Assembly (NCBI GenBank): GCA_034660695.1
Contig: JAYEJS010000114.1
Location: forward strand, 8,144 to 69,051
DNA length: 60,908 nt
Direction of reading: 5' to 3'
DNA from: Thermoplasmatota archaeon
GTDB taxonomy: Archaea > Thermoplasmatota > E2 > UBA202 > DSCA01
Under the pieces are notes generated by a model that worked only from the letters and a program-made list of their open reading frames with translations, was not told the DNA's origin and did not search any database. Each line of letters starts with the position of its first letter. The first letter of the stretch is position 1. A program made the translations under genes and the position numbers. Positions 9,524 to 60,908 of this stretch are shown in pieces.

Positions 9524-11119
9524 TTATAAATTCTTTGCATGGGCTTGTACAGAAGGAGAAGAAATAGGAAATAAATTGAATATATAAACTTCTATCCTAT
9601 CTGCTGCAACACCTCCTGCATTTCCATAATATACTCCTGCGGTTATTTCGTATTCATACAATCTTGCAACTCTTTCATTCCATTTCCATTCATACGGCGG
9701 GGAATAAACAACTGCTCTTGGCTGAAGTTCATATTTATGTCCTATATGACACAAGTAAAATTCGACTCTATCCACCTTTTCCATAGGATCATTAACTTCC
9801 GCAATTACAGTTATGCTCCCTAAAATTAACGTTCTTTTTGCCGGCATTAACTCCCTATCAAAAAGATAAAGATAATTCTCCTCTGGCCTTACAATGTTTA
9901 TTTTGGGTGGAGAATAATCCGCACATTTTATAACCATTGCATTTGCATCTCTAGGATATTGACCAGTTCCCCCTGCAATAATATAGCTTCCATCTTTTGT
10001 CGGTATAACGGCGTTTGCAACCTCTCTATCTCTTCCTCCAAAACTTTTATTCCATACCTCGTTTCCATTGTTATCTACCTTCAAAAGCCAAGCATCAAAA
10101 AGATTACCAACGTCATATGTTTCGGTAGCTCCTGCTAAGATATATCCATCATCTGTTTTTTTGATACTAGATACATGATCACTATCCCATCCTCCATAAG
10201 TTTTGCTCCATACTTCATTTCCTTGTCTATCAATTTGTATAAGATATGCATCTCCCCATCCGGTAGGAGTAGATATTGTAGTTCCAGCAATTATGTAACC
10301 TTCTTCTACTTCAATTATATGGGCATTCATTTCAAAATCCCACCATCCGTACGTTTTGCTCCATATTTCATTTCCTTGTCTATCCGCCTTAACAAGCCAT
10401 ATATCCCACCCTCCGTAAGTTGTATAGGAATAAGTTATTCCTGAAATTAAATACCCATCCTCTATTTCTATTATGTCATCTCCAAACTCTGTTTTGTTTC
10501 CTCCAAATGTTTTATTCCAAAGCATATTCCCTTCTTTATCAGTCTTTATTATCCAAATGTCATCGTCAGGAAAATTAAATGAGTGCGTGGTTCCAACGAT
10601 AGCATATCCCCTATCCTTTGTTTTAATAACCTTCATTCCAAAATCATCATATTTTCCACCATACGTCCTATTCCATTCTTCATTTCCACTCCTATCTGTC
10701 TTTATAAGCCAGTAGTCTGCTTCTCCTTTCCCGTAGGAATGAGCATATCCGGCCATTACATATCCATCATCCGCTTGTATAACAGAAGATCCAGCATCAT
10801 CTTCTCTTCCTCCAAATGTTTTGCTCCATATTTCATTTCCTTCCTTATCTATTTTGGTTAGCCAAACATCCCCTTTCCAAACTCCGTGAGACATTATAAC
10901 TCCTGCTATTATATATCCTCCATCATCTGTTTGTATGATATCCATTGCTGATTCATCGTGATTGCTGTCCCCTAATTTTTTATTCCACTCTCCATCATTG
11001 CTTTTTCTTTCTTTCACATCATGTAGATCTTGGGACAGGCCAGTTGAAAGTAAAAGAATAACAACTACGGCGATAATTACGGTAACGATAATAACTATTT
11101 TTTTCATCTTTTCACTCAT
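9524..11119 (-). CDS. Membrane-anchored/secreted protein with about 6.5 tandem ~50-aa beta-propeller-like repeats and the shared C-terminal module
   Basis: N-terminal TM helix IVIIVTVIIAVVVILLL. The repeat unit is DGGY.I.G.T.S.....D.WLIK.D..GNE.W.KT.GG. The C-terminal 128 aa (9524-9910) match the module found in four other proteins in this window. Confidence 0.75.
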   Translation of the reverse strand: MSEKMKKIVIIVTVIIAVVVILLLSTGLSQDLHDVKERKSNDGEWNKKLGDSNHDESAMDIIQTDDGGYIIAGVIMSHGVWKGDVWLTKIDKEGNEIWSKTFGGREDDAGSSVIQADDGYVMAGYAHSYGKGEADYWLIKTDRSGNEEWNRTYGGKYDDFGMKVIKTKDRGYAIVGTTHSFNFPDDDIWIIKTDKEGNMLWNKTFGGNKTEFGDDIIEIEDGYLISGITYSYTTYGGWDIWLVKADRQGNEIWSKTYGWWDFEMNAHIIEVEEGYIIAGTTISTPTGWGDAYLIQIDRQGNEVWSKTYGGWDSDHVSSIKKTDDGYILAGATETYDVGNLFDAWLLKVDNNGNEVWNKSFGGRDREVANAVIPTKDGSYIIAGGTGQYPRDANAMVIKCADYSPPKINIVRPEENYLYLFDRELMPAKRTLILGSITVIAEVNDPMEKVDRVEFYLCHIGHKYELQPRAVVYSPPYEWKWNERVARLYEYEITAGVYYGNAGGVAADRIEVYIFNLFPISSPSVQAHAKNL

Positions 11120-34892: not shown

Positions 34893-34940
34893 ATGAGATG
34901 TACCTGGTTTGACGACCAAGTTTATTATGAATTTAGCCCC
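34893..34940 (+). repeat. 48-bp direct repeat, copy 1, flanking the first HEPN/MNT cassette
   Basis: atgagatgtacctggtttgacgaccaagtttattatgaatttagcccc matches 35709-35756 at 44 of 48 positions by manual alignment. Confidence 0.85.
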
Positions 34941-34992
34941 ACTGATACCAAGACTTATGAAAGCTCAATAACCTGGCGGAGAGGCATGATTC

Positions 34993-35346
34993 TTATCGTT
35001 TTTCCTCTTTCCTCAAACCTTTCAGCATTGTCTTAATCATGCTCCTAGTTTCTGGTAGATTCTCAGTTATGATTTTCCAGATGATGCTCAAGTCCACTCC
35101 AAAGTATTCATGAATTGTGATATTGCGTAACCCAATCATTCTTTTCCAAGGAATATCGGGATATTTTTCTTTGGCATCATCCGGGATGTTTTTTGCTGCC
35201 TCACCAATGATTTCTAGGTTTCTAATAACCGCATCTATAACCATCTCATTTCCTACAAATGTCTCGTAAGTCGAACCTTCGATATAACGCCCGATTTTAT
35301 CCATTGCTTCTAGTATGTCCTCGATAAATATTGAGTTCCGCCTCAC
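34993..35346 (-). CDS. hepT: HEPN (DUF86) toxin HepT
   Basis: R-x4-H motif in GLRNITIHEYFGV. The gene has a 4-nt overlap with the upstream MNT gene. Confidence 0.85.
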   Translation of the reverse strand: MRRNSIFIEDILEAMDKIGRYIEGSTYETFVGNEMVIDAVIRNLEIIGEAAKNIPDDAKEKYPDIPWKRMIGLRNITIHEYFGVDLSIIWKIITENLPETRSMIKTMLKGLRKEEKR

Positions 35347-35633
35347 ATGTACACAACCTCTTCCAGGATCTTATCTTTCAACTGGGGTTTCAAAGCTTTT
35401 ACTGTGACCAAATCCACCTTTTTGCCTAAAATTTTTTCCAAGAATTCTTTGAGATCAATAAATTCCCACCCTATCTGTTCATAAAATTCCACGAGGATAT
35501 CTATATCACTTTCCTCTGATTCCTCTCCCCGTATATAGGAACCAAAAACACCAATTTTTTTCACCTTAAACTTTTTCCTAAGAAAGGCCTTATGTTTCTT
35601 TAATATTTCTTCTATCTCTTTTTGTTTTTCCAT
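35343..35633 (-). CDS. mntA: Minimal nucleotidyltransferase antitoxin MntA
   Basis: The motif GVFGSYIRGEESEESDIDILVEF fits GSxxRG...SDxD. Confidence 0.85.
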   Translation of the reverse strand: MEKQKEIEEILKKHKAFLRKKFKVKKIGVFGSYIRGEESEESDIDILVEFYEQIGWEFIDLKEFLEKILGKKVDLVTVKALKPQLKDKILEEVVYM

Positions 35634-35708
35634 CTACTTGTATATACATATCTCAATTAAATTTTTTGATTTTTTGTTCACCTTTTAGAATTCTCATTTT
35701 CTCAAGAG

Positions 35709-35756
35709 ATGAGATATGCCTGGTTTGACAACCAAGTTTATTATGAATTTAGCCCT
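35709..35756 (+). repeat. 48-bp direct repeat, copy 2
   Basis: atgagatatgcctggtttgacaaccaagtttattatgaatttagccct. See 34893-34940 for the partner copy. Confidence 0.85.
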
Positions 35757-35950
35757 GCTTGTGCTGAAGTCGAAATGAAGAAAAGATATGCCCCGAATTC
35801 TGGATCCAAAGTAGGTCTCAAATTCTGGATGGATGTTGAAGAGTCATCATGCTGTGAGCTTTGTTTTTGGTTTGTACAATCCAATTTGATGAAAATTCGT
35901 TCGCCAAAAACTTTAAGGCGTAAATTGCATTATAATCTTGGAGGCAAAAA

Positions 35951-37378
35951 ATGAAGAATGCAATATGGAAAAAAGGATTGGTTGTTGGAATAATACTACT
36001 TATTATAGGGGTTAGCTTCTCAACGTCAAAGCAAATCATAGCCTTACAACCAGAAATTGTAGTAGGGCCATATACTCAAAATGTTACTAATGATAGCATA
36101 ACAATAGCGTGGGAAACAAACATTCCTGCCACTAATAATAGTGTGGAGTATGGTGAAAACACAGATTATGGGTGTATTGAATATGGGCCGTCTGGTGGTC
36201 GCCATCACGAAATAACGATATATCCTCCTTTTACATCTGGGCATTACAAAGTGGTATCGGATGGTATAGAAAGCAATGATTTTGAATTTAAACTGGCTGG
36301 TCATTGTTATAGCACTCAAGAATTTAAGTGCGTGATATTCGGTGATAGCAGAGGAGTATGGGATCGCTGGAGGCACGCAACTGAAGTAGCAAATGCGGTT
36401 AATGCCGAACACCCAGACTTTGTTATACATGGAGGTGATATGGTGAATGATGGAAGAGTTCAAACCCAATGGGATAGCTGGCTTGGGTTAATGAAATCAT
36501 TAATGCAGAACTCGACTGTCTTTGGCATACTGGGCAATCATGAATACAACGGCAGTCGATACTATGAAATTTTTGCCCTTCCAAATAATGAAATGTGGTA
36601 TAGTTTTGATTATGGACCGTGCCATTTTACAATATTGGACAATTATGAATCATGGGATGTTGGTTCACCTCAATATGAGTGGCTGAAAGATGACTTGTCT
36701 TCAAGCATGGCTCCTTTCAAGATTGTTTGCTTCCACGAGCCCATATATTGTAGTGGAGGTCACGAACCTAGGACTGATGTGAGAGCAGCGTGGGAGTCTT
36801 TATTCAACAACTATAACGTTGACCTGGTCTTTCAATCACATAATCACTATTACCAGCGTACTGACCCTATAAAGGGAATAACCTATATCGTTAGTGGAGG
36901 GGCTGGAGCACCATTATATACTCCAGAAGATGCATGGTTTATGAATAATAGCAAGAAAGCATATCATTACTGCGTTTTAGATGTTTCATTAGTGGAGATG
37001 CGAATGACATGCTCAGCTAGGTATACTAATGGAATTGCGTTTGATGAATTTGTTGTTTGTCCGCCTACTACACCGAGCGTGAAAATTATAAAACCAGAAA
37101 AAGCTCTCTACATTTTTAATAAAAAGATAATGCCTTTGTCTTCTACTTTGATAATCGGAAAAATAGACATAGAAGTCTTTGCAACAGATTATAAATCAGG
37201 TATAGATCGTGTGGAGTTTTATATCGATGGCGGATATAAAGGGAACGATACCTCTCTTCCTTATGAATGGACTTGGGATGAAACCATTTTTGGTAAACAC
37301 ACTATAAATGCTATTGCTTATGATAACTCTGGTAACACTGCAAGCGATGAGCAAGAGGTCTGGATATTCAACCTCTAA
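35951..37378 (+). CDS. Secreted purple-acid-phosphatase-like metallophosphoesterase with the shared C-terminal module
   Basis: The N-terminal anchor is followed by an FN3-like domain (ITIAWETN). Metallophosphoesterase motifs are GDSRG, GGDMVNDG, GNHEY, FHEPIY and SHNHYYQR. The C-terminal 101 aa (37073-37378) form the shared module. Confidence 0.8.
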   Translation: MKNAIWKKGLVVGIILLIIGVSFSTSKQIIALQPEIVVGPYTQNVTNDSITIAWETNIPATNNSVEYGENTDYGCIEYGPSGGRHHEITIYPPFTSGHYKVVSDGIESNDFEFKLAGHCYSTQEFKCVIFGDSRGVWDRWRHATEVANAVNAEHPDFVIHGGDMVNDGRVQTQWDSWLGLMKSLMQNSTVFGILGNHEYNGSRYYEIFALPNNEMWYSFDYGPCHFTILDNYESWDVGSPQYEWLKDDLSSSMAPFKIVCFHEPIYCSGGHEPRTDVRAAWESLFNNYNVDLVFQSHNHYYQRTDPIKGITYIVSGGAGAPLYTPEDAWFMNNSKKAYHYCVLDVSLVEMRMTCSARYTNGIAFDEFVVCPPTTPSVKIIKPEKALYIFNKKIMPLSSTLIIGKIDIEVFATDYKSGIDRVEFYIDGGYKGNDTSLPYEWTWDETIFGKHTINAIAYDNSGNTASDEQEVWIFNL

Positions 37379-42873: not shown

Positions 42874-42978
42874 CGGGCGTGGTGGGATTTTCGCACAACT
42901 TATCAAACAAGTTGCAGTTCGAACCCACGATTGCTGGCTTAGAAGGCCAGCGCCATATCCTAGCTAGGCCACACGCCC
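42874..42978 (-). tRNA. tRNA-Arg (anticodon UCU) with a 30-nt T-loop intron (59/60)
   Basis: Acceptor GGGCGTG/CACGCCC plus G. Anticodon stem CTGGC/GCCAG with loop CTTCTAA. T stem GTGGG/CCCAC is separated by 37 nt. The predicted intron is 42888-42917. Confidence 0.85.
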
Positions 42979-43020
42979 ACTTTGTAGCACCAACGTAAGA
43001 AAGTGCACTTGATAATAAAA

Positions 43021-49239: not shown

Positions 49240-49996
49240 GTATACTGGTGGCACGCATCTCTCAGGGGGCAGAGAGCCCTTTTCTTCTATGTCCCCACTG
49301 GGCTATAACAGAAGTTGGAAAGCCGGTCATTCTCATCATGGCAGAAATGCCGCAACCATGTCTATCCCGGCAGTTCTATCCCCTCTTGCCAGAACAACGT
49401 CCCTTGTCTTTTTATTCAATGCCTTTTCCAGAATTGCCTGGCCATGCAGTCAAAAAAGCCCGTGTCCTTCAAAAATCTGATTTTATCACAATGACCTGAA
49501 TAGCGTATGGTCTTGTAATCCAACTCTCTATGTTTCCGGCAGGGTTGATGCGCCTCCGGACGTATAAAAAGCTTCCAGCTCTTCAAACCCCGGAAACAAT
49601 ATGTAAGGGATTCAACTTCTGCGGAAGTCCCCCCATCCTGATATGCATTTCTTGAGCATGTGATTTTTTGATGAGATACGAGGACAGTATATTGGTCATG
49701 CCGGGAGCGAGCCCGCAGTCCGGTACGATCATGCAGGGAAATCTCTTTCCCCACAATTTCAATGTTTCCGCCAAGGTCACAGAAATTCGTTTTGCATTTT
49801 ATCGCCGTTTTTGCTATACCGTAATTAAAGCCATTCTTCATTGCATCTTGAATTGCCCGCATCAACGTGCACAAAATCAACTTTACCGGAAAGCTGTAGC
49901 ATGTTTTTAATGCATTCCTCGCTCGACATCACTTCTTATAAGGTCATACGCGATGGCCAGGCCCATCTTCCCTCCGCCCAAAACAAGCGCATTCAT
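49240..49996 (-). pseudogene. Decayed saccharopine-dehydrogenase-family gene (multiple frameshifts and stops)
   Basis: The N-terminus MNALVLGGGKMGLAIAYDLIRSDVE (Rossmann) is followed by a stop. Homologous pieces continue in shifting frames: KVDFVHVDAGN, IQDAMKNGFNYGIAKTAIKCKTNFCDLGG, IVPDCGLAPGMTNIL, IRMGGLPQ, YKTIRYSGHCDKIRFLKDTGFF and GISAMMRMTGFPTSVIA. Confidence 0.7.
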
Positions 49997-50826: not shown

Positions 50827-51754
50827 TCATAAAGTAACTATTTTTGTTGAATCTACAGCAAAATTCATTGCAAGATCGTATGCTATCACCTTTATTTCGT
50901 GCATACCCCCAGCATATTCATTAAGCGGCCATGTATAAGGGGCTACAGTATCATTAAATTGTAGCTCGTCATCAAAATAAAATGCAACAGCTGCTATACC
51001 TGTTTCAGCATCCGATGCTTCTGCTTCTATCGTTATTCCCCAAATGATTATTGGCATGAAAAACGGTAAAATTTTCCTATCTTTGAGATAGATTCCTCCA
51101 GACGGCGTGGTTATTTCAACATCTGGCGGATTATTATCTTCCTTGTCTGCCAGGGTCCACGTATAATTTGTATCACTGTATCCCATGCTGTCAGTTACAG
51201 TCAAGGTTACTTCATATCTTCCCATATTTGCGTAAGTATATGATGGATTTTGCTCATTACTGCTGCTCCCCATCCCCAAAATCCCAATGCCATTGATAGG
51301 GCCTATGCCCCCCATATGCAGACCCATGGAAATTTATAATTTTTCCGGCCCTTCCTTTATAGGGCCCGTTCGCATTTGCTAGCGGTCCGTCATAATACAA
51401 GGTTATATTATCAAATCCTTTTACACCAAGGCTGGTGCTCGCTACATAAACATCGACTTTATTCCATCCTGGGTAAAGAGATATATTTATGTAAAAGGAA
51501 AAATTTGTTTTATCATTGATTGGACTGGATTCACTGTAACTCCCATTATCCCATCTCCATGTCCATCCATACTCTGCTAGTGTGTCACCGCAGCATGCAC
51601 TGGCTACACAACGAATTGAAACATTTCTTTGGTGAAAAACAGTGCCATCTTCCGGCTCCACTATCTCAACACCTACTCCTGTAGCAATTCCATTAACATT
51701 TATCAAACTTGCTAGAACAAGGATGGAAATCATAATTAATACAAATTTTTTCAT
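50827..51754 (-). pseudogene. Secreted PKD-domain protein with the shared C-terminal module, interrupted by a +1 frameshift
   Basis: ORFs 51257-51754 (signal peptide ... YQWHWDFGDG) and 50827-51327 (SSSNEQNPSYTYANMGRYEVTLTVTD...) together form one PKD domain. The frames join at the G4 run (cccc on +, 51268-51271). Confidence 0.7.
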
Positions 51755-51824: not shown

Positions 51825-51944
51825 TGCGGGCGCCGGGATTTCCGAGCACACTTGCCTGGAAATGCAACTTGCCAAACAAGTTGTGATTCGAACCCGGGCA
51901 GCAAGCTTGGGAAGCTTGAATCTTGACCGCTAGATCACGCCCGC
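51825..51944 (-). tRNA. tRNA-Gly (anticodon CCC) with a 48-nt T-loop intron (59/60)
   Basis: Acceptor GCGGGCG/CGCCCGC plus A. D stem ATCT/AGAT. Anticodon stem CAAGC/GCTTG with loop TTCCCAA. T stem CCGGG/CCCGG is separated by 55 nt. The predicted intron is 51839-51886. Confidence 0.85.
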
Positions 51945-54172: not shown

Positions 54173-57100
54173 TTACAGTATCTTTATGTAGTCTACTGAG
54201 CCTGCATTGGCTGTGTTGCATGCCTTGTCCGTTACTGTTACTGTCAATGTATCGGTTCCGAATGGGAAGTAGAACGGTAGGTTGTATTCATATGGGCTTA
54301 CTGCATCTTCTACGCTTCCCTTGCTGGTGCTGAAGGTTACATATCCAACGCCAGATGTTGCATCGCTTGCTGTCGCTGTAGCAGTCAATCCACCGATTAT
54401 CAGTGCCTTGCTCTTGTCGAGTATCCTTGGCATGATCTGTCTTCCGAAGAAGTATATATACCCAGCTTCTGGTGAAGTTATGCTTCCAGTTGGTGCTGTC
54501 TTGTCTATCTTGAACGATACCGACTTGGCTGTTTCCTCGTTGCCGACTGCATCAACGCTGTAGTAGCTTATGGTATGCTCGCCATCAATGCCTATCGTGA
54601 TTGGTCCTGTATATGTAAGCCATGTTCCGCCATCTATGCTGTAGTATGTTGTTCCCATCTCGCGGTCAACTGCGGTCAACGTTACTGTGACATCACTTGT
54701 ATACCAGCCATTGCATCCATCAGGTTCTGGTGGATTTACAATTGCTGTTGTCACCGGAGCTTCTGTGTCTCTCTTGCCTGTTACTAAGATATCGTCTATC
54801 TGTATCGCACCAACATCTGTTTCATCGGATACAAGTCTCCATCGTATCAAAGCTTCGCCACCGGTGAATGGCGTCAGACTGATACCATAGTTATACGTGT
54901 ATCCAAGCGCCGGTAATGCTGACTGAGCAACCCATCCGCCGGAATCACCCTGGTATGTCGCTATTGTATTCCATGTTTCTCCGCCGTCAGTGCTTACTTC
55001 CACATACAGGAAGTCACCTGTCGCTATCACTGTGTAATTGGTATAGAACCTCAGCCATGCCTGGTAGACACCTGAGAGGTCTAGGTCCAGTATGAGCTTA
55101 TCGTCTGCATTGTTACGATAGTTCATGTAGCTGCTGTCATAGCCAAAGTACATTGCGGTAGTGTAGTGCCAGTATGCTGGTGGCAATCCCCAACCACTAA
55201 GGTTACACTGCGCCGGGTACAGCTGCTTGTTGTAGCTGCTGTATGTATATGGATCAAAGTTGGCTGCACAATGCTCGTCATCATCTGGATAACTGCATGT
55301 ATCCGATACGTGCCACATGCTTCCCGTCCACGGTTCAAGAGTATGCCACTTGCCCATGCCATCCTCGAAGTCATCTTCGAACAGGACTTCTTCTGTCCAT
55401 CTCCAAGGCTGGTCAGTACCATCGTATGGAACTGTTTCGTTGGTCAGGCTGACGAGTTCAATATTGTCTATGTATGCACCCTTGTACGCGTAACCACTGT
55501 CGCTCATGAAGTGGAAGCGGAAATGCATGTCCTCTGTTATGCTCACGTTGACATAAGATATGTTTATAAAGTACTCACAAGGTGGGTACGGATCAATGTA
55601 CGGACATGCGGGTACATACAGATTGTATGCTACTATGTAATCGGTTCCGTTGAACAGTTCCATGTCATAGTGTACCCATTCCTCCATGTTGTATCCATAA
55701 TTAGTCACGTTGTTCCAGTGAGCGATCGTCCACCAGTTATCGCCTGAATCGTTGCTGATTTCAAGTGTCAGATAATCCCAGTCGGTTTCTATTTCATTCC
55801 ACAGGTCAAATCTCAATTGTGCCATTACCATATCAGTTAAGTCAAATGCCAAAATACCGTCTCCATCCGCAGGCACAACGAGGTCGTTCCTGTTATTATC
55901 GTACGAGTTTTCATATGAGTCATCTCCGTCACCAGTATAAAGGAAATGATTCAACTGCCATCCCGGAGCGCCGTCATCGCAAATAACCCACTGTCCCGGC
56001 TCGCCAAATGTATTATCATGAGTGCTCCATTCCGATCCGAATTCACCTACATCACCCATCCAACCGCCGCCTTCAAAGTCTTCATCATAAAGTTCCGTGT
56101 AAATGTACAGATTACTGCCCTGTGCCTCATCGTTGTACATGTATCCAAGGTCTGGATCTCCCTTGAAGTGCGTATTCCAGTCGTCTTCAACGTGTGTTTT
56201 AACTACAGGGGTATAATCGCAATAGTCGCAAGCGTTCCACAGAATGGTCAGCTCGTCGGATTGTTCACCGGGTTCGAGGGTTTCATACATCATATCGCTG
56301 CTCCATATTGTTTCTCCCAGACCGGCTCCCCAGAGCTGGACATCATCGACATACAATCCGCTCCACGGCTCATCAGGATAGTTGTTGTTTGCGTCACCGG
56401 TTGCCATTGCCCAGAAGAATGCTATCTTCCCATCAGCATCGTATCCAATGCTTCTGAGCCACGTCATAAGGTCAGGTTCAGTGGTTTCCGGTCCCGCAGT
56501 AATGATAATTGGATACCATGGGTTACCTGGATGTACTGCATTGTAACCCGAAATTTCTCCTGGGGTGTTAGTGCTTTCAACTGGAAGCCAGCCACCACTG
56601 GTTCCGGATGTAGCTGTACTTGAGAGGAACAAATAGATGCCTGCATCAGTTATAACACCGAAGTACCACTTATCAGAGTATCCTGGATCGAAGTGGCCTG
56701 TATAACCTGGACTTGGACCTAACTCATTGTTGATATTGAAGTTTACCCAATAGTTAAGGTGCGTTGTCGTCACACCGATATACTCATTCATGTCTATTTC
56801 CGGTGTTCTGAAAGCACAGTACATATTGCTGCCGTAGTAACCTTCATTCTGGTCGGGACAGACCGCATCACCGAAGTACCATGCATTTGTTCCGGAGTGG
56901 GCAAGCATCTCTGTTTCTACATGCGGCAGGACACAATTGGGATTGGCAAAGTAACCTATCTCATATCCCTGGTCGAGGTAATAATCGGTATCTCCCTGCT
57001 CATAATCATCGTAGAAGACATTTTCAACTGCCGTTTTGTGCACTTCTATCTGGTATGGTATTGGCTCTTCTATTGTTCCCTCATTGGCAACGACATAAGA

Positions 57101-58561
57101 AATTGGTACATCTATGCATTCAGTGGTCTTTTCTATCTGCACTATCTCATTGCCATCTGCTCCGAAGTATACACTGATACCTGCACCATCATGCCAATCA
57201 CCGAAGTAAACACTCTCATTGACACCATTCTTTGGATTCCAGTAGCGTGCCCCGGTCATTGGATCAATAAACCATCCCTCTGGTGTATCGGGTATGCCGA
57301 GCCATGTGATATTTTGCGTCGTAAACTCGTTATCTCCCTCAAAATCATAGTGTCCATCTACATCATCGTCGTCTATAAGTTCTGAATACACCTCAAAGAA
57401 GTATGTCGTATCGTCCTTTGGCGTGAATGGCAACATAAACTGGACCTGCTTCTGGAACGCTGTTTCATTGAATGCCCCAAGATACATTGCCTCATCTACA
57501 GGCTTATATTCCTGCCACACCAACGGCTGCATTCCGCCACACTGTGCCATAAGTGTAACATCATCAATGTACCATCCCTCAAACTGAGTGCATGGGTCAG
57601 AATGCCACTCGAACATTATCTGAATCGTTGTATTGTCCGGAGTGAGTGGTATAAACCATCCGACAGGTGCTCCATGTGAGTATGTAAATGTACCTATATC
57701 TAAGACATAATCCGAGCCGAAATCATCCGGGTCTGCCGTTAGCCATTCGCCCTCGCTATCTGCGTAAATTGCCAAAGGCACCCATGCCCCGCCGTCGATT
57801 CTGTAATAAACCTTGCCGTAATCTTCGAATTTGCCCTGTTCTTCGCTTACTTCTCCCTGTATCCACTGCTTGAAATTCAGCCAGACCGACGGTGTTCCAT
57901 CGCATAGGCCAGTAATGTCTATCTCCCTGCTGATAAGCTGGTCCAATGAATTACCCACATAAGTTCCTCCGTTGTCATCCATTACACAGTCATATACGTT
58001 ATGGTAGCTGTGCGTTGGTGAGTAGCTTCTCTTTTCTGTCCATCCCCATGTAACGCCATCGTCATCAACATCAACTGCTGTCCAATTGTGGCAACATGAT
58101 TCCATATCGTCGAACCAGAATGTAAAGGGATCGGGTTCAATTTCCTCGTATATCTGCAGGAATACTTTTACCTCATGTGGCACATCGTCCCAGTTTGTTA
58201 CCGTAGCAACAACATTTGTTTCCGATGTCTCATGTGGTACTGTTGGGTCTGGCACGTCCAGATATGTTACGTCAACGTCAGGCGGAACCTGACCTCCTCT
58301 ATCGGCCGCATATGGGTCGTACCATCCATTTTCCTCAACATGTCTGTTATCTTCGTGCCTTCCATAATTTGCTGGGTCGTATGGCGGCGTCCCTGATTCT
58401 CCATAAAGGACATCTGTAGTAGTGCCTTCTACCGCATTGCCGTCTCCACCGCTATCTCCACCGCTATCAGCAAAGACCACTGCTGGTATTCCTGTTATCG
58501 TTATCGCAATCACTAGAGATATCAACACTTTTATTCCATTTTTTGCTTTTTTTGCTTTCAT
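54173..58561 (-). CDS. Giant secreted protein (~1462 aa): four jelly-roll (MAM/'choice-of-anchor'-like) modules, a GWY-type Ig-like domain and the shared C-terminal module
   Basis: The start was set at MKAKKAKNG after GGAGG, followed by a signal peptide ending VVFA. F.DDFE....W......W...L.L......L.F.......D...VE.S.DGG..W-type modules recur. Other blocks are NGWYTSDVTVTLTAVD...YYSVDAVGNEE. The module lies at 54173-54496. Confidence 0.85.
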   Translation of the reverse strand: MKAKKAKNGIKVLISLVIAITITGIPAVVFADSGGDSGGDGNAVEGTTTDVLYGESGTPPYDPANYGRHEDNRHVEENGWYDPYAADRGGQVPPDVDVTYLDVPDPTVPHETSETNVVATVTNWDDVPHEVKVFLQIYEEIEPDPFTFWFDDMESCCHNWTAVDVDDDGVTWGWTEKRSYSPTHSYHNVYDCVMDDNGGTYVGNSLDQLISREIDITGLCDGTPSVWLNFKQWIQGEVSEEQGKFEDYGKVYYRIDGGAWVPLAIYADSEGEWLTADPDDFGSDYVLDIGTFTYSHGAPVGWFIPLTPDNTTIQIMFEWHSDPCTQFEGWYIDDVTLMAQCGGMQPLVWQEYKPVDEAMYLGAFNETAFQKQVQFMLPFTPKDDTTYFFEVYSELIDDDDVDGHYDFEGDNEFTTQNITWLGIPDTPEGWFIDPMTGARYWNPKNGVNESVYFGDWHDGAGISVYFGADGNEIVQIEKTTECIDVPISYVVANEGTIEEPIPYQIEVHKTAVENVFYDDYEQGDTDYYLDQGYEIGYFANPNCVLPHVETEMLAHSGTNAWYFGDAVCPDQNEGYYGSNMYCAFRTPEIDMNEYIGVTTTHLNYWVNFNINNELGPSPGYTGHFDPGYSDKWYFGVITDAGIYLFLSSTATSGTSGGWLPVESTNTPGEISGYNAVHPGNPWYPIIITAGPETTEPDLMTWLRSIGYDADGKIAFFWAMATGDANNNYPDEPWSGLYVDDVQLWGAGLGETIWSSDMMYETLEPGEQSDELTILWNACDYCDYTPVVKTHVEDDWNTHFKGDPDLGYMYNDEAQGSNLYIYTELYDEDFEGGGWMGDVGEFGSEWSTHDNTFGEPGQWVICDDGAPGWQLNHFLYTGDGDDSYENSYDNNRNDLVVPADGDGILAFDLTDMVMAQLRFDLWNEIETDWDYLTLEISNDSGDNWWTIAHWNNVTNYGYNMEEWVHYDMELFNGTDYIVAYNLYVPACPYIDPYPPCEYFINISYVNVSITEDMHFRFHFMSDSGYAYKGAYIDNIELVSLTNETVPYDGTDQPWRWTEEVLFEDDFEDGMGKWHTLEPWTGSMWHVSDTCSYPDDDEHCAANFDPYTYSSYNKQLYPAQCNLSGWGLPPAYWHYTTAMYFGYDSSYMNYRNNADDKLILDLDLSGVYQAWLRFYTNYTVIATGDFLYVEVSTDGGETWNTIATYQGDSGGWVAQSALPALGYTYNYGISLTPFTGGEALIRWRLVSDETDVGAIQIDDILVTGKRDTEAPVTTAIVNPPEPDGCNGWYTSDVTVTLTAVDREMGTTYYSIDGGTWLTYTGPITIGIDGEHTISYYSVDAVGNEETAKSVSFKIDKTAPTGSITSPEAGYIYFFGRQIMPRILDKSKALIIGGLTATATASDATSGVGYVTFSTSKGSVEDAVSPYEYNLPFYFPFGTDTLTVTVTDKACNTANAGSVDYIKIL

Positions 58562-58660
58562 GTTTTTGCCTCCAAATTGTATATAGAAAAAATGGTATAT
58601 AAAAGCTTCGGTGAAAAGCATTTAAAAAAGCAGAATCCGGCAAACAACAGCACACAAACT

Positions 58661-58718
58661 ATCCGTAGACTTCGTGAACAGGGATTTGGATGGATAGAAT
58701 GCATACACGAAACTCTTG
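58661..58718 (+). repeat. Dispersed repeat A, copy 1 (upstream of the giant gene)
   Basis: A 9-nt block atccgtaga and a 34-nt block tttggatgg...aaactcttg match 60794-60836. The 34-nt block matches at 31 of 34 positions. This copy has 15 extra nt between the blocks. Confidence 0.75.
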
Positions 58719-58847: not shown

Positions 58848-59045
58848 CTAATATATTTTACATATTTTACGGAAAAATACATATTGTATCATTTTCATTT
58901 CCGTATCCCGTCTAACCACCAGTTGAGCATGGAAATGAAATGGCTGCTTATTGAAAACTCAGCGGAAAGGCTCTTTCTCAATACTTTTTACAAGCTCGCC
59001 GTCAAGATAAAAATCAACCTGTGAAATGCCCGATGTATCAGTTAT
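58848..59045 (-). pseudogene. 3' remnant of a gene for the shared C-terminal module, truncated by the TA island
   Basis: The frame reads ITDTSGISQVDFYLDGELVKSIEKEPFR*VFNKQPFHFHAQLVV.... It aligns to ATDYKSGIDRVEFYIDG...PYEWTWDETIFGKHTINAIA of 35951-37378. The in-frame TGA (58959-58961) falls where family members have Trp. The remnant begins immediately after the HEPN gene stop. Confidence 0.5.
58916..58948 (+). repeat. 33-bp direct repeat B, copy 1 (left flank of the double TA island)
   Basis: ccaccagttgagcatggaaatgaaatggctgct matches 60734-60766 at 32 of 33 positions. Confidence 0.85.
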
Positions 59046-59452
59046 AGCGATCTTTTGATTTCCGTAAATATTTCGGTAAAATCTTTCAAACCTGTTTTTA
59101 TGTCATGATACGCTATTTCTTCATCAAGCCTTCCGTATCTATGAACCAGATAATTCCGGAAGGCTTCCATCTTTTTTAGCATCTTTATCGTTTCACTGTC
59201 CATAACCTCTGAATTTTTAAGCTCATCGAGCATGTCATCATCGCTGGCTGGCACCCTCAAATCCTTATCTTTTACAATGAGAGCACATATATCTAAGATG
59301 TTCTGAATGGCAAACTCCACATTTTTGTAAATTCCATCTCTTTCAAGCCTGCTCATAGATAAAAAATTTTCATAGCTCTCAGGTAAATTTTTCTCCACCA
59401 GATTAATGCTGTCTTTAGCATCAGAGAGTTTGTTCAATATTCTTTCATTCAT
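59042..59452 (-). CDS. HEPN/DUF86-like toxin
   Basis: R-x4-H motif in FRNYLVHRYG. The gene has a 4-nt overlap with the upstream nucleotidyltransferase gene. Confidence 0.75.
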   Translation of the reverse strand: MNERILNKLSDAKDSINLVEKNLPESYENFLSMSRLERDGIYKNVEFAIQNILDICALIVKDKDLRVPASDDDMLDELKNSEVMDSETIKMLKKMEAFRNYLVHRYGRLDEEIAYHDIKTGLKDFTEIFTEIKRSL

Positions 59453-59844
59453 AGTGTAGCACCTTCCACACCAGTTTTTCCATAAAGTATGTATTTGTAT
59501 CTGGGTTCAAAGTCATTGTACTCTTCGATTGTCCTATGAGCGACATCGTGAATGAATTCCTTATCATCGGCGTAAATAAGTTCTCCTTTAAAAATTTCCT
59601 TTTTTACGTATAGAGGTAGAAACTGAAACATCTGAATGTCATATTTATCTGGAAAAGAACCGCTTATCGTAAAAAAAAGCTCGCTTAACTCTTTTTTATC
59701 ATTGACGTCATAATAAAGACATATGTCGATATCCGACCTATCAGTAGTATTTCCGGTAACTGAAGAGCCGTAAAGATAAACGAATTTTAACCTGTTAAAG
59801 TGTAAAAATTGCTTCAGTTTGTCCAGAATTTCTTCTTTCATCAT
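59449..59844 (-). CDS. Nucleotidyltransferase-domain antitoxin (MNT-like)
   Basis: The motif is YLYGSSVTGNTTDRSDIDICLYY. The start was set to the internal MMKEE, and the ORF extends to 59934. Confidence 0.75.
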   Translation of the reverse strand: MMKEEILDKLKQFLHFNRLKFVYLYGSSVTGNTTDRSDIDICLYYDVNDKKELSELFFTISGSFPDKYDIQMFQFLPLYVKKEIFKGELIYADDKEFIHDVAHRTIEEYNDFEPRYKYILYGKTGVEGATL

Positions 59845-60030
59845 GAAATGATATCGGCAAAAGATGTTTAAATATTTCCTTTTGTCGGTTTCGAGAAACT
59901 CTATACAGATATTAGGCTCAGAGAATTCGGTCAAGTTGTTTTTTCACACATGCTTCTTATGTGCCGTATAGTTATAGGAAAAATTTAAGTGATATTAAAA
60001 TATTTAGGTAAACAAGAAGCAAGGATAAAA

Positions 60031-60324
60031 ATGAAAAAAATTGATGAGATAAAGCATATATTGAAATCGCATAAAGAAATCATGGCAGAGAAATACCATG
60101 TTAAAGAGATAAGCGTATTTGGCTCATATGTACGTGGTGATCAGGTTTCTGGTAGCGATATAGACATACTTGTAGAATTTTCGAAACCTGTTGGATTGAT
60201 AAAGTTTATTGAGCTGGAAGAATATCTCAGTGAACTTTTAAAAACAAAAGTAGACCTCGTTCCAAAAAGTGGAATAAAAATAGCACTGAAAGATAGCATA
60301 CTCAGTGAGGCAGTTTCAGTATGA
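60031..60324 (+). CDS. mntA: Minimal nucleotidyltransferase antitoxin MntA
   Basis: The motif is SVFGSYVRGDQVSGSDIDILVEF. It is a homologue of 35343-35633. The start is at MKKIDEIK. Confidence 0.85.
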   Translation: MKKIDEIKHILKSHKEIMAEKYHVKEISVFGSYVRGDQVSGSDIDILVEFSKPVGLIKFIELEEYLSELLKTKVDLVPKSGIKIALKDSILSEAVSV

Positions 60325-60662
60325 AGCGAGATTACAAAATCTTTCTACAGGATATCCTTCGAAGTATAGAACATATTGAAGGATATACAGAAGGCATGGA
60401 TATCGAAGCTTTTCGCAATGACCAAAAAACTGTCGATGCGGTTATCAGAAATCTAGAAATCATTGGCGAAGCCACTAAAAATATACCTATTGAGTTTAGA
60501 AGGAAGTATCCAGATATCCCGTGGAGAGAGATGGCTGGAACGAGAGACAAACTCACTCACGGATATTTTGATATCGTATATGAGATACTCTGGGAAACAG
60601 TGAAAAATGACCTCCCCAAAATCAAACCTAAAATCAAAAAGATATTGGATAAAACAATGTAA
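60321..60662 (+). CDS. hepT: HEPN (DUF86) toxin HepT
   Basis: The motif is GTRDKLTHGYFD. It shares VDAVIRNLEIIGEA.KNIP....KYPDIPW with 34993-35346. Confidence 0.85.
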   Translation: MKRDYKIFLQDILRSIEHIEGYTEGMDIEAFRNDQKTVDAVIRNLEIIGEATKNIPIEFRRKYPDIPWREMAGTRDKLTHGYFDIVYEILWETVKNDLPKIKPKIKKILDKTM

Positions 60663-60733
60663 CATGAAAAATCTACCGTTTTATGCCCCAACATTCTTGA
60701 ACAGTCCTATAATTTTTATTCATTTTTATCCAG

Positions 60734-60766
60734 CCACCAGTTGAGTATGGAAATGAAATGGCTGCT
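60734..60766 (+). repeat. 33-bp direct repeat B, copy 2 (right flank of the double TA island)
   Basis: ccaccagttgagtatggaaatgaaatggctgct. Confidence 0.85.
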
Positions 60767-60793
60767 GAGAGAGAAAAGAAAACTAGTTAGACA

Positions 60794-60836
60794 ATCCGTA
60801 GATTTGGATGAATAGGATGCATACGCGAAACTCTTG
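60794..60836 (+). repeat. Dispersed repeat A, copy 2
   Basis: atccgtagatttggatgaataggatgcatacgcgaaactcttg. See 58661-58718 for the partner copy. Confidence 0.75.
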
Positions 60837-60908
60837 TAACGTGGTTTGAGGATTTTTCAGTGTCATTCAGCATATATTATCCATGTTCTCACTCATAGGG
60901 ATATATTC

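Follow-up and report, generated by a model that had tools for sequence, protein, structure and literature searches.

How toxin-antitoxin (TA) operons spread to chromosomal sites without a visible carrier element is poorly understood, and the question is raised afresh by a 60,908-nt stretch of contig JAYEJS010000114.1 from a Thermoplasmatota archaeon (hereafter the window, whose positions serve as coordinates throughout). Near its right end, two divergent TA operons lie between almost identical 33-nt direct repeats, next to what is left of a surface-protein gene. How did these operons come to occupy this place, and what do the repeats record? We argue that the TA island replaced most of a secreted-protein gene ending in a Big_7 module and that nearby host DNA was duplicated at the insertion, an explanation to which we assign a probability of about 0.62. 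The host is an uncultured archaeon from brine and the locus is chromosomal, the window carrying exosome, proteasome and ribosomal-protein genes of an archaeal chromosome. Since the entire structure is covered by Logan unitigs of three independent brine-metagenome runs, which differ from it by a few substitutions at most, an assembly artefact is ruled out. There are also unitigs that extend past 60908, for example one of 1500 nt from run X2 that starts at 60758. A look-up with HepT1, one of the two toxins, returned two 8-kb Logan contigs with ends at or before about 60787, and an exact-protein look-up with the other toxin, HepT2, gave no match.

The toxin-antitoxin island and the gene remnant

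Four intact genes lie between the 33-mers and make up two divergent MntA/HepT (type VII) operons. This layout, and the match of the repeats at 32 of 33 positions (97%), had been recorded in an initial annotation made from the sequence, in which the repeats were called B and B'; we refer to them as D1 and D1'. The island and its immediate surroundings contain the following features:

58658-58718, no strand: left copy of repeat C, in the non-coding host DNA that separates the gene remnant from the promoter of the next gene
58848-59054, minus strand: pseudogene remnant, the C-terminal two-thirds of a Big_7 module by translation, ending at its own stop codon
58916-58948, no strand: left copy (D1) of the 33-nt repeat core, which belongs natively to the coding sequence of the remnant and encodes QPFHFHAQLVV
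59042-59452, minus strand: HepT1, type VII RNase toxin with an RNYLVHRY motif (Pfam HepT-like, 7.9e-23)
59449-59844, minus strand: MntA1, nucleotidyltransferase antitoxin with a GS...DID motif (Pfam Polbeta/NTP_transf_2), overlapping HepT1 by 4 nt
59845-60030, no strand: AT-rich divergent intergenic region of 186 nt (G+C content 0.27-0.32)
60031-60324, plus strand: MntA2, nucleotidyltransferase antitoxin (Pfam NTP_transf_2, 3.8e-19)
60321-60662, plus strand: HepT2, DUF86-type HepT with an RDKLTHGY motif (Pfam HepT-like, 1.9e-31)
60734-60766, no strand: right copy (D1') of the 33-nt repeat core, standing alone with no module around it
60791-60836, no strand: repeat C', right copy, 15 nt from the 47-nt D1' repeat

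The frame of the remnant begins a few bases after the HepT1 stop codon and is closed upstream by stops inside the HepT1 gene. It reads KIAITDTSGISQVDFYLDGELVKSIEKEPFR-stop-VFNKQPFHFHAQLVVRRD... or KIAITDTSGISQVDFYLDGELVKSIEKEPFR-stop-VFNKQPFHFHAQLVVRRDTEMKM...KIY-stop, and an in-frame TGA (58961-58959) stands at the conserved Trp of the module. That this decayed frame encodes a C-terminal surface-protein module had been proposed before, and profile comparisons bear the proposal out. Pfam Big_7 matched the remnant with E=2.6e-4 at profile positions 25-57 of 70 (22 bits, just under the gathering cut-off of 24.1), and a hidden Markov model of six intact modules, namely the C-terminal modules of four window proteins and of two proteins of the relative L029 introduced below, scored it at 35.2 bits, 1000 shuffles giving a mean of -1.0 and a maximum of 7.8. 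The remnant aligned end to end with these six modules. Translation and module alignment likewise agreed with the earlier placing of the left repeat inside the decayed frame: the 33-mer encodes the F-x-H-x-x-L-V-V-x-x-D part of the module, which reads FG.H.l.v.AyD in intact copies. As the 33-mer occupies its native position in the module, D1 is native coding sequence; it has its native gene context on both sides, about 100 nt of native module sequence separating it from HepT1. A homologue search with the read-through remnant found nothing.

What stood here before the island can be approached through the gene downstream of it, which encodes a secreted or surface protein of 1462 aa. Scans of the GTDB representative and JGI collections recovered only distant relatives of this protein. 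A protein search led to a 42-kb NCBI contig, L029, carrying a 65%-identical orthologue of 1437 aa. The features used for this comparison, together with the last one before the window edge, are:

54173-58561, minus strand: intact 1462-aa secreted/surface protein gene, an open reading frame (ORF) with Pfam InhA-like MAM and CHB_HEX_C/Big_13 matches; downstream neighbour of the remnant and synteny anchor
58562-58617, minus strand: conserved promoter/leader block of the 1462-aa gene, with a TTTATATA box and GGAGG, 83% identical over 54 nt to L029 8543-8596, which directly precedes the orthologue there
60867-60908, minus strand: possible 3' gene end running off the window, 13 codons by translation (...EYIPMSENMDNIC) and a stop

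Gene order is kept in L029 (Fe-ADH, formyltransferase, Mur ligase, Rce1, a 415-aa PKD gene and the 1437-aa orthologue), with identities of 69% to the 418-aa PKD gene of the window and 68% to its Rce1-like protease, and the homology between window and L029 ends at 58617. Directly upstream of the 1437-aa orthologue, across a spacer of 73 nt, L029 has an intact 667-aa gene for a Peptidase_C13 and Big_7 protein, preceded in turn by a gene for a 494-aa PKD protein with the same C-terminal Big_7 module. No HepT/MNT genes were found at the corresponding L029 site. This intact gene supports the earlier proposal that the TA island displaced the 5' part of a family member, and it is the best available evidence that such a gene probably once held the position of the island and lost its 5' part. 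Insertion into a gene is not borne out in the form first given: the 142 nt to the right of D1' contain no 5' gene part, so the gene was truncated or replaced, not split. L029 is without TA genes here but too diverged (65% at the amino acid level) for the repeats to be aligned. At 279-690, some 8 kb from the surface-protein cluster on its upstream side, it carries a HicA/HicB TA pair; the window lineage has HepT/MntA in that place. In both lineages the neighbourhood appears to serve as a landing zone for TA genes.

The TA modules themselves are ordinary additional members of a known family. In all three pairs of the window, the third being part of a cassette at 35 kb described below, the antitoxin gene comes first and its stop overlaps the toxin start by 4 nt, an arrangement typical of TA pairs. 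The three HepTs carry Rx4H followed by x-Y (RNYLVH, RDKLTH and RNITIH; Pfam HepT-like 7.9e-23, 1.9e-31 and 4e-32), the Tyr after the motif His being the predicted target of AMPylation, and the three nucleotidyltransferases carry GSx10DxD (GSSVTGNTTDRSDID, GSYVRGDQVSGSDID and GSYIRGEESEESDID; Pfam NTP_transf_2/Polbeta). With the cut-off of 60 bits that applies to the NCBIfam equivalogs NF047751/NF047752, HepT1 passes as HepT_toxin (85.3 bits) and MntA1 falls slightly below as MntA (57.3 bits); HepT1 also matched the Shewanella HepT structures PDB 5YEP/6M6U over its full length (E=2.6e-8). Pairs 2 and 3 scored 38-56 bits, under the same cut-off, and appear to form a related short DUF86-type subfamily. 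HepT2 had no sequence match in the PDB. Sequence comparison upheld the earlier distinction between one pair homologous to the 35-kb cassette and one of another subfamily: MntA2 is 52% identical to the nucleotidyltransferase at 35 kb and HepT2 46-47% identical to the HepT there, and HepT1, of the different subfamily of pair 1, has no significant match to the two other window HepTs. The closest public homologues of HepT2 are 62-73% identical, and those with a name come from metagenome-assembled genomes of Methanomassiliicoccales and Methanofastidiosia. In each operon the HepT RNase is presumably held inactive by its partner MntA, and the region between the operons is presumed to carry the promoters of both. 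The G+C content of the island is 0.27-0.43 as compared to about 0.45 in the flanking genes.

HepT/MNT modules are commonly clustered. The same divergent two-pair MNT/HepT layout occurs on a Methanomassiliicoccales contig (L018, 3443-5336), where one pair has decayed to HepT fragments of 40 and 36 aa, and another contig (L023, 4711-9908) has three HepT/MNT pairs within 5 kb; flanking direct repeats were found at neither locus.

The repeats and the composite junction

When the window was searched for the 33-mer allowing up to 3 mismatches, only D1 and D1' were found, with 0 copies expected from 100 shuffles, and JGI metagenome contigs contained no further copy. Around the core, similarity extends without gaps to 47 nt at 85% (58911-58957 and 60729-60775) and with gaps to about 58894-58957 and 60719-60775. 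In contrast to D1, which is embedded in its gene, D1' has no module sequence upstream of it on the minus strand: only C' follows, then 30 nt, then the terminal 13-codon ORF end. Folding of the repeats gave no attC-like hairpin (z-scores -1.7 to +1.1), Rfam had no match in the region, and the tRNA and Rfam checks showed that the repeats are not tRNA-derived. Contigs of four brine runs contained no excised or empty-site joints. A high-depth alternative context of the TA intergenic region in run X3 was rejected, as it consisted of low-complexity matches of 18-19 nt.

Three elements of this anatomy had not been recorded in the initial annotation: the second repeat C, the permuted abutment of D1' and C', and the native gene sequence between D1 and HepT1. 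C and C' share a 36-nt core (right copy 60801-60836) at 92% identity plus a 9-nt block, with a 15-nt indel, and C has no counterpart in L029. On the plus strand the order is C, some 175-190 nt, D1, the block made up of the N-terminal part of the module, TA1, TA2 and 56 nt, then D1' and C'. The right copies D1' and C' therefore abut, in an order reversed relative to the left side, and a shared AAACT(A) is present at the D1'|C' joint. Repeat C, the permuted order and the native sequence inside the bracket show that the repeats do not mark the clean edges of an insertion; together they make up a composite junction left by rearrangement. The view of the repeats as recombination scars of an insertion into the gene stands in part: the 33-mer is native to the remnant, but native sequence inside the bracket, the fusion of D1' to C' and the reversed order do not allow the repeats to be read as simple boundaries. 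A single tandem duplication, a single Campbell-type circle crossover and one long target duplication were each considered; each needs at least one extra deletion and none was adopted. Three runs show short dead-end tips of unitigs within 60758-60811 (53-54 nt long, at depths of 4-22), which fork off at 60782 and 60787; their alternative sequences are close to reverse complements of each other around a CTAG palindrome. They may be due to a fold-back artefact or represent a minor variant of the D1'|C' joint.

The second TA locus of the window offers a simpler picture:

34893-35755, minus strand: HepT3/MntA3 cassette (genes 34993-35633, insert 769 nt) between 47-nt direct repeats at 34893-34939 and 35709-35755, 94% identical

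These repeats agree with the earlier statement that long direct repeats enclose the first cassette, too. An 81-codon ORF (35709-35953) has its ATG at the first base of the right copy and overlaps, by ATGA, with the start of a phosphoesterase-Big_7 gene; the left copy opens a truncated duplicate of this ORF. As far as can be seen the geometry is clean, repeat-insert-repeat; unitigs span the cassette, and the 47-nt repeat has two copies in the window. Although the cassettes are homologous, the repeat sequences of the two islands are unrelated, and no shared non-coding ends were found between the 35-kb and 60-kb cassettes. The DNA homology of pair 2 to its relatives is confined to coding sequence (60031-60658) and stops with it, so that there are no conserved element termini. 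Low-depth contigs of runs X2 and X3 contain a 41-nt stretch (window 34896-34936) that differs from the 47-mer at 5 positions, the rest of their sequence being unlike; they may derive from the target site of a related organism.

A sliding scan of 1178 pseudo-cassettes placed non-coding direct repeats scoring at least 26 only around the two TA islands, the next best being internal repeats of one gene at 10.1-10.9 kb with a score of 25.5. The link between repeats and TA genes is thus real in this genome; judging by six homologous cassettes elsewhere, it is not general to the HepT/MNT family.

The origin of the island

We propose that a secreted-protein gene with a C-terminal Big_7 module formerly lay directly upstream of the 1462-aa gene. 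About 1.6 kb of low-G+C, horizontally acquired DNA would have taken over nearly the whole of it, leaving its last 200 nt or so as a pseudogene, and the rearrangement that installed the island would also have made second copies of two short stretches of the host DNA next to it: a core of 33 nt (some 60 nt at most if gaps are admitted) from inside the remnant and the 46-61-nt repeat C from the spacer downstream of it, both copies being set back to back at the far junction of the island. The process may have been a duplication of target or nearby sequence by illegitimate or template-switch insertion. Either a long target duplication was followed by loss of the 5' part of the gene, or template-switch repair filled the far junction with copies of two nearby segments; the island at 59 kb would then differ from the cassette at 35 kb by a second added event or by serial template switching. 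The 35-kb cassette can be seen as the clean version of the same process, a 47-nt duplication around a 769-nt cassette. Addiction to the TA operons would stabilise a stretch of DNA otherwise open to deletion by recombination between the flanking repeats. On this reading the repeats are the trace of an untidy insertion and do not point to a novel type of mobile element.

Several observations weigh against this explanation. The geometry is unlike that of a simple target duplication, with native module inside the left bracket and C and D1 in opposite order on the two sides; a simple split gene with target duplication would place the N-terminal part of the module beside D1', which is not what is seen. 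The two copies of the repeat diverge unevenly, with 97% identity in the core and far less similarity in the flanks. The roughly 215 nt between the stop of the remnant and the promoter block have no counterpart in L029. The identity of the remnant to the upstream proteins of L029 (27-29%) is not rated higher than that to the window paralogues (17-26%), so its orthology is argued from position only. Six homologous HepT/MNT cassettes, from four loci on contigs of other archaea and bacteria, showed no flanking repeats that rise above background. Finally, no empty-site or pre-insertion allele was found, so that we infer the duplication at insertion and do not observe it.

Could the repeats owe nothing to the arrival of the TA genes? 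D1' and C' might be leftovers of another family member, in a tandem array of Big_7-tailed genes eroded by several deletions. Big_7/PKD genes and pseudogenes crowd the region, two successive upstream genes of L029 end in the module, and at the window edge 30 nt separate C' from the end of an ORF. The module paralogues of the window, however, have no detectable DNA similarity to one another, in contrast to the 97% of D1/D1' and the 92% of C/C' with their sharp boundaries; there is no module sequence upstream of D1', and the sliding scan puts such non-coding repeats around TA islands only. We regard this alternative as unlikely. It is improbable, too, that the 33-47-nt repeats are the attL and attR sites of a small TA-carrying element integrated by a tyrosine or serine recombinase encoded elsewhere. 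Their length is the usual one for att sites in archaea and bacteria, they occur at both TA islands of the window, and repeats of 45-47 bp were seen by Furuta et al. in cases involving integrases and tRNA genes (PMC2853133). Yet Pfam scanning detected no integrase or transposase domain in the island, beside either island or elsewhere among the scanned genes of the window, the repeats do not derive from tRNA genes, and homologous cassettes have unrelated repeats at the two islands. Integration at D1 is also hard to reconcile with the native gene sequence on both of its sides, the island side included, and would leave repeat C and the permuted order unexplained.

Selection on a functional site would account for a core kept at 97% beside much weaker adjoining similarity, the copies lying some 70-125 nt past the HepT stop codons as an operator or RNA target downstream of both toxin genes. 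We hold this to be very improbable: the copies are opposite in orientation relative to the two operons, there is neither a structure signal nor an Rfam match, D1 is simply coding sequence of a dead gene, and the repeats at 35 kb are unrelated in sequence. Conventional mobile cassettes, with the repeats as integron-like sites or as transposon or miniature inverted-repeat transposable element (MITE) termini, are an explanation that is largely refuted and to which we give next to no weight. TA pairs are common as integron cassettes, and a 23-nt imperfect inverted repeat surrounds pair 2 (60023-60045 and 60709-60731); but this inverted repeat is AT-rich, is matched in quality by 14 other chance pairs within 4.9 kb, and has no equivalent at the 35-kb cassette. 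The attC-like hairpin is missing (fold z-scores as given above), neither IntI nor a transposase was found in the Pfam-scanned genes of the window, the homology to related cassettes ends at the coding sequence, and the duplications, at 33-61 nt, are not the short target duplication expected of an insertion sequence or MITE.

The replacement of a Big_7-tailed gene with duplication of nearby DNA may be an instance of something wider. Two independent TA islands in 61 kb, each with its own unique duplication of 33-47 nt, point to a target-duplicating insertion route such as has been deduced for restriction-modification genes, and such a route would extend the idea to TA modules and to Archaea, by a mechanism that we infer from one genome. 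A bolder version, which we put forward tentatively and consider doubtful, is that HepT/MntA operons of this archaeal lineage are mobile without transposase or integrase, entering by break-repair or template switching that duplicates 30-60 nt of target, and that the repeats would allow excision as small circles and re-insertion. If true, this would be the first 'insertion with long target duplication' for a TA module and the first in Archaea.

The neighbourhood and the closest known systems

Big_7/PKD genes and pseudogenes are abundant around the island. At 50827-51754 on the minus strand, overlapping ORFs of 165 aa (partial PKD) and 166 aa (PKD and Big_7) look like the two parts of a single surface-protein gene broken by a frameshift, a further case of decay of the Big_7 surface-protein family near the island. 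The locus illustrates the growth of a defence or addiction island at the cost of a surface-protein gene family in decay. Another gene appears to be decaying nearby: at 49246-49996 (minus strand) tblastn found the orthologue of a 356-aa saccharopine-dehydrogenase-like gene of L029 in pieces and in different frames, and the 154-aa ORF at 49416-49880, which has no Pfam match, is probably a pseudogene fragment. A 31-nt direct repeat (84%) occurs at 42896-42926 and 51865-51895, its first copy overlapping the 3' end of a tRNA-Arg predicted by ARAGORN at 42903-42979 and not called by Rfam at its gathering score; the 9 kb between the copies hold ribosomal-protein and housekeeping genes and no obvious integrated element. 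The 531-aa ORF at 9524-11119 contains three diverged copies (64-71%) of a 126-nt unit at 10130-10873 and would encode an internally repetitive protein.

As to the cargo, the closest system is the type VII HepT/MntA pair SO_3166/SO_3165 of Shewanella oneidensis (PDB 5YEP, 6M6U). The operons described here resemble it in being bicistronic, with the antitoxin first and overlapping genes, in the HepT Rx4-6H motif followed by Tyr and in the MntA motif GSx10DxD, HepT1 exceeding the equivalog cut-off and aligning with 5YEP over its full length. They differ in that pairs 2 and 3 are short, DUF86-type and below that cut-off, and in their archaeal host.

As to the architecture, TA cassettes of Vibrio superintegrons are likewise small TA operons with their own promoters between similar direct repeats; unlike at those, no attC hairpin, integrase or array was found here, and the repeats are pieces of a neighbouring host gene. 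Archaeal integrative elements with tRNA att sites of about 45 bp also place foreign DNA between direct repeats of similar length, but no integrase or tRNA target was found at the present islands, which moreover differ from each other in repeat sequence.

The closest parallel is the 'insertion with long target duplication' of restriction-modification (R-M) gene complexes, reportedly described by Nobusato et al. in 2000. Duplications of at least 45 nt around selfish gene complexes without mobility genes are on record (PMC2853133, PMC3874152): two cases in Haemophilus influenzae have 46-bp duplications and no mobility gene (PMC2853133), and R-M cases in Helicobacter have duplications of up to about 400 bp. 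The screen of Furuta, Abe & Kobayashi 2010 recovered no archaeal case (PMC2853133). The window differs from these in its cargo, a TA pair in place of an R-M complex, in its archaeal host and, at the 59-kb island, in a composite permuted junction instead of one clean duplication. It shares with them a selfish, addictive gene complex of atypical G+C content without a mobility gene, flanked by target-derived direct repeats of more than 30 bp (33/47 nt at the island and 47 nt at the 35-kb cassette, each present twice in the window). In length, the 46-bp duplications of the two Haemophilus influenzae cases are similar to the 47 nt at the 35-kb cassette. The repeat-bounded architecture may be a mildly interesting, as yet unproven, example of how a selfish operon inserts in an archaeon with duplication of its target.

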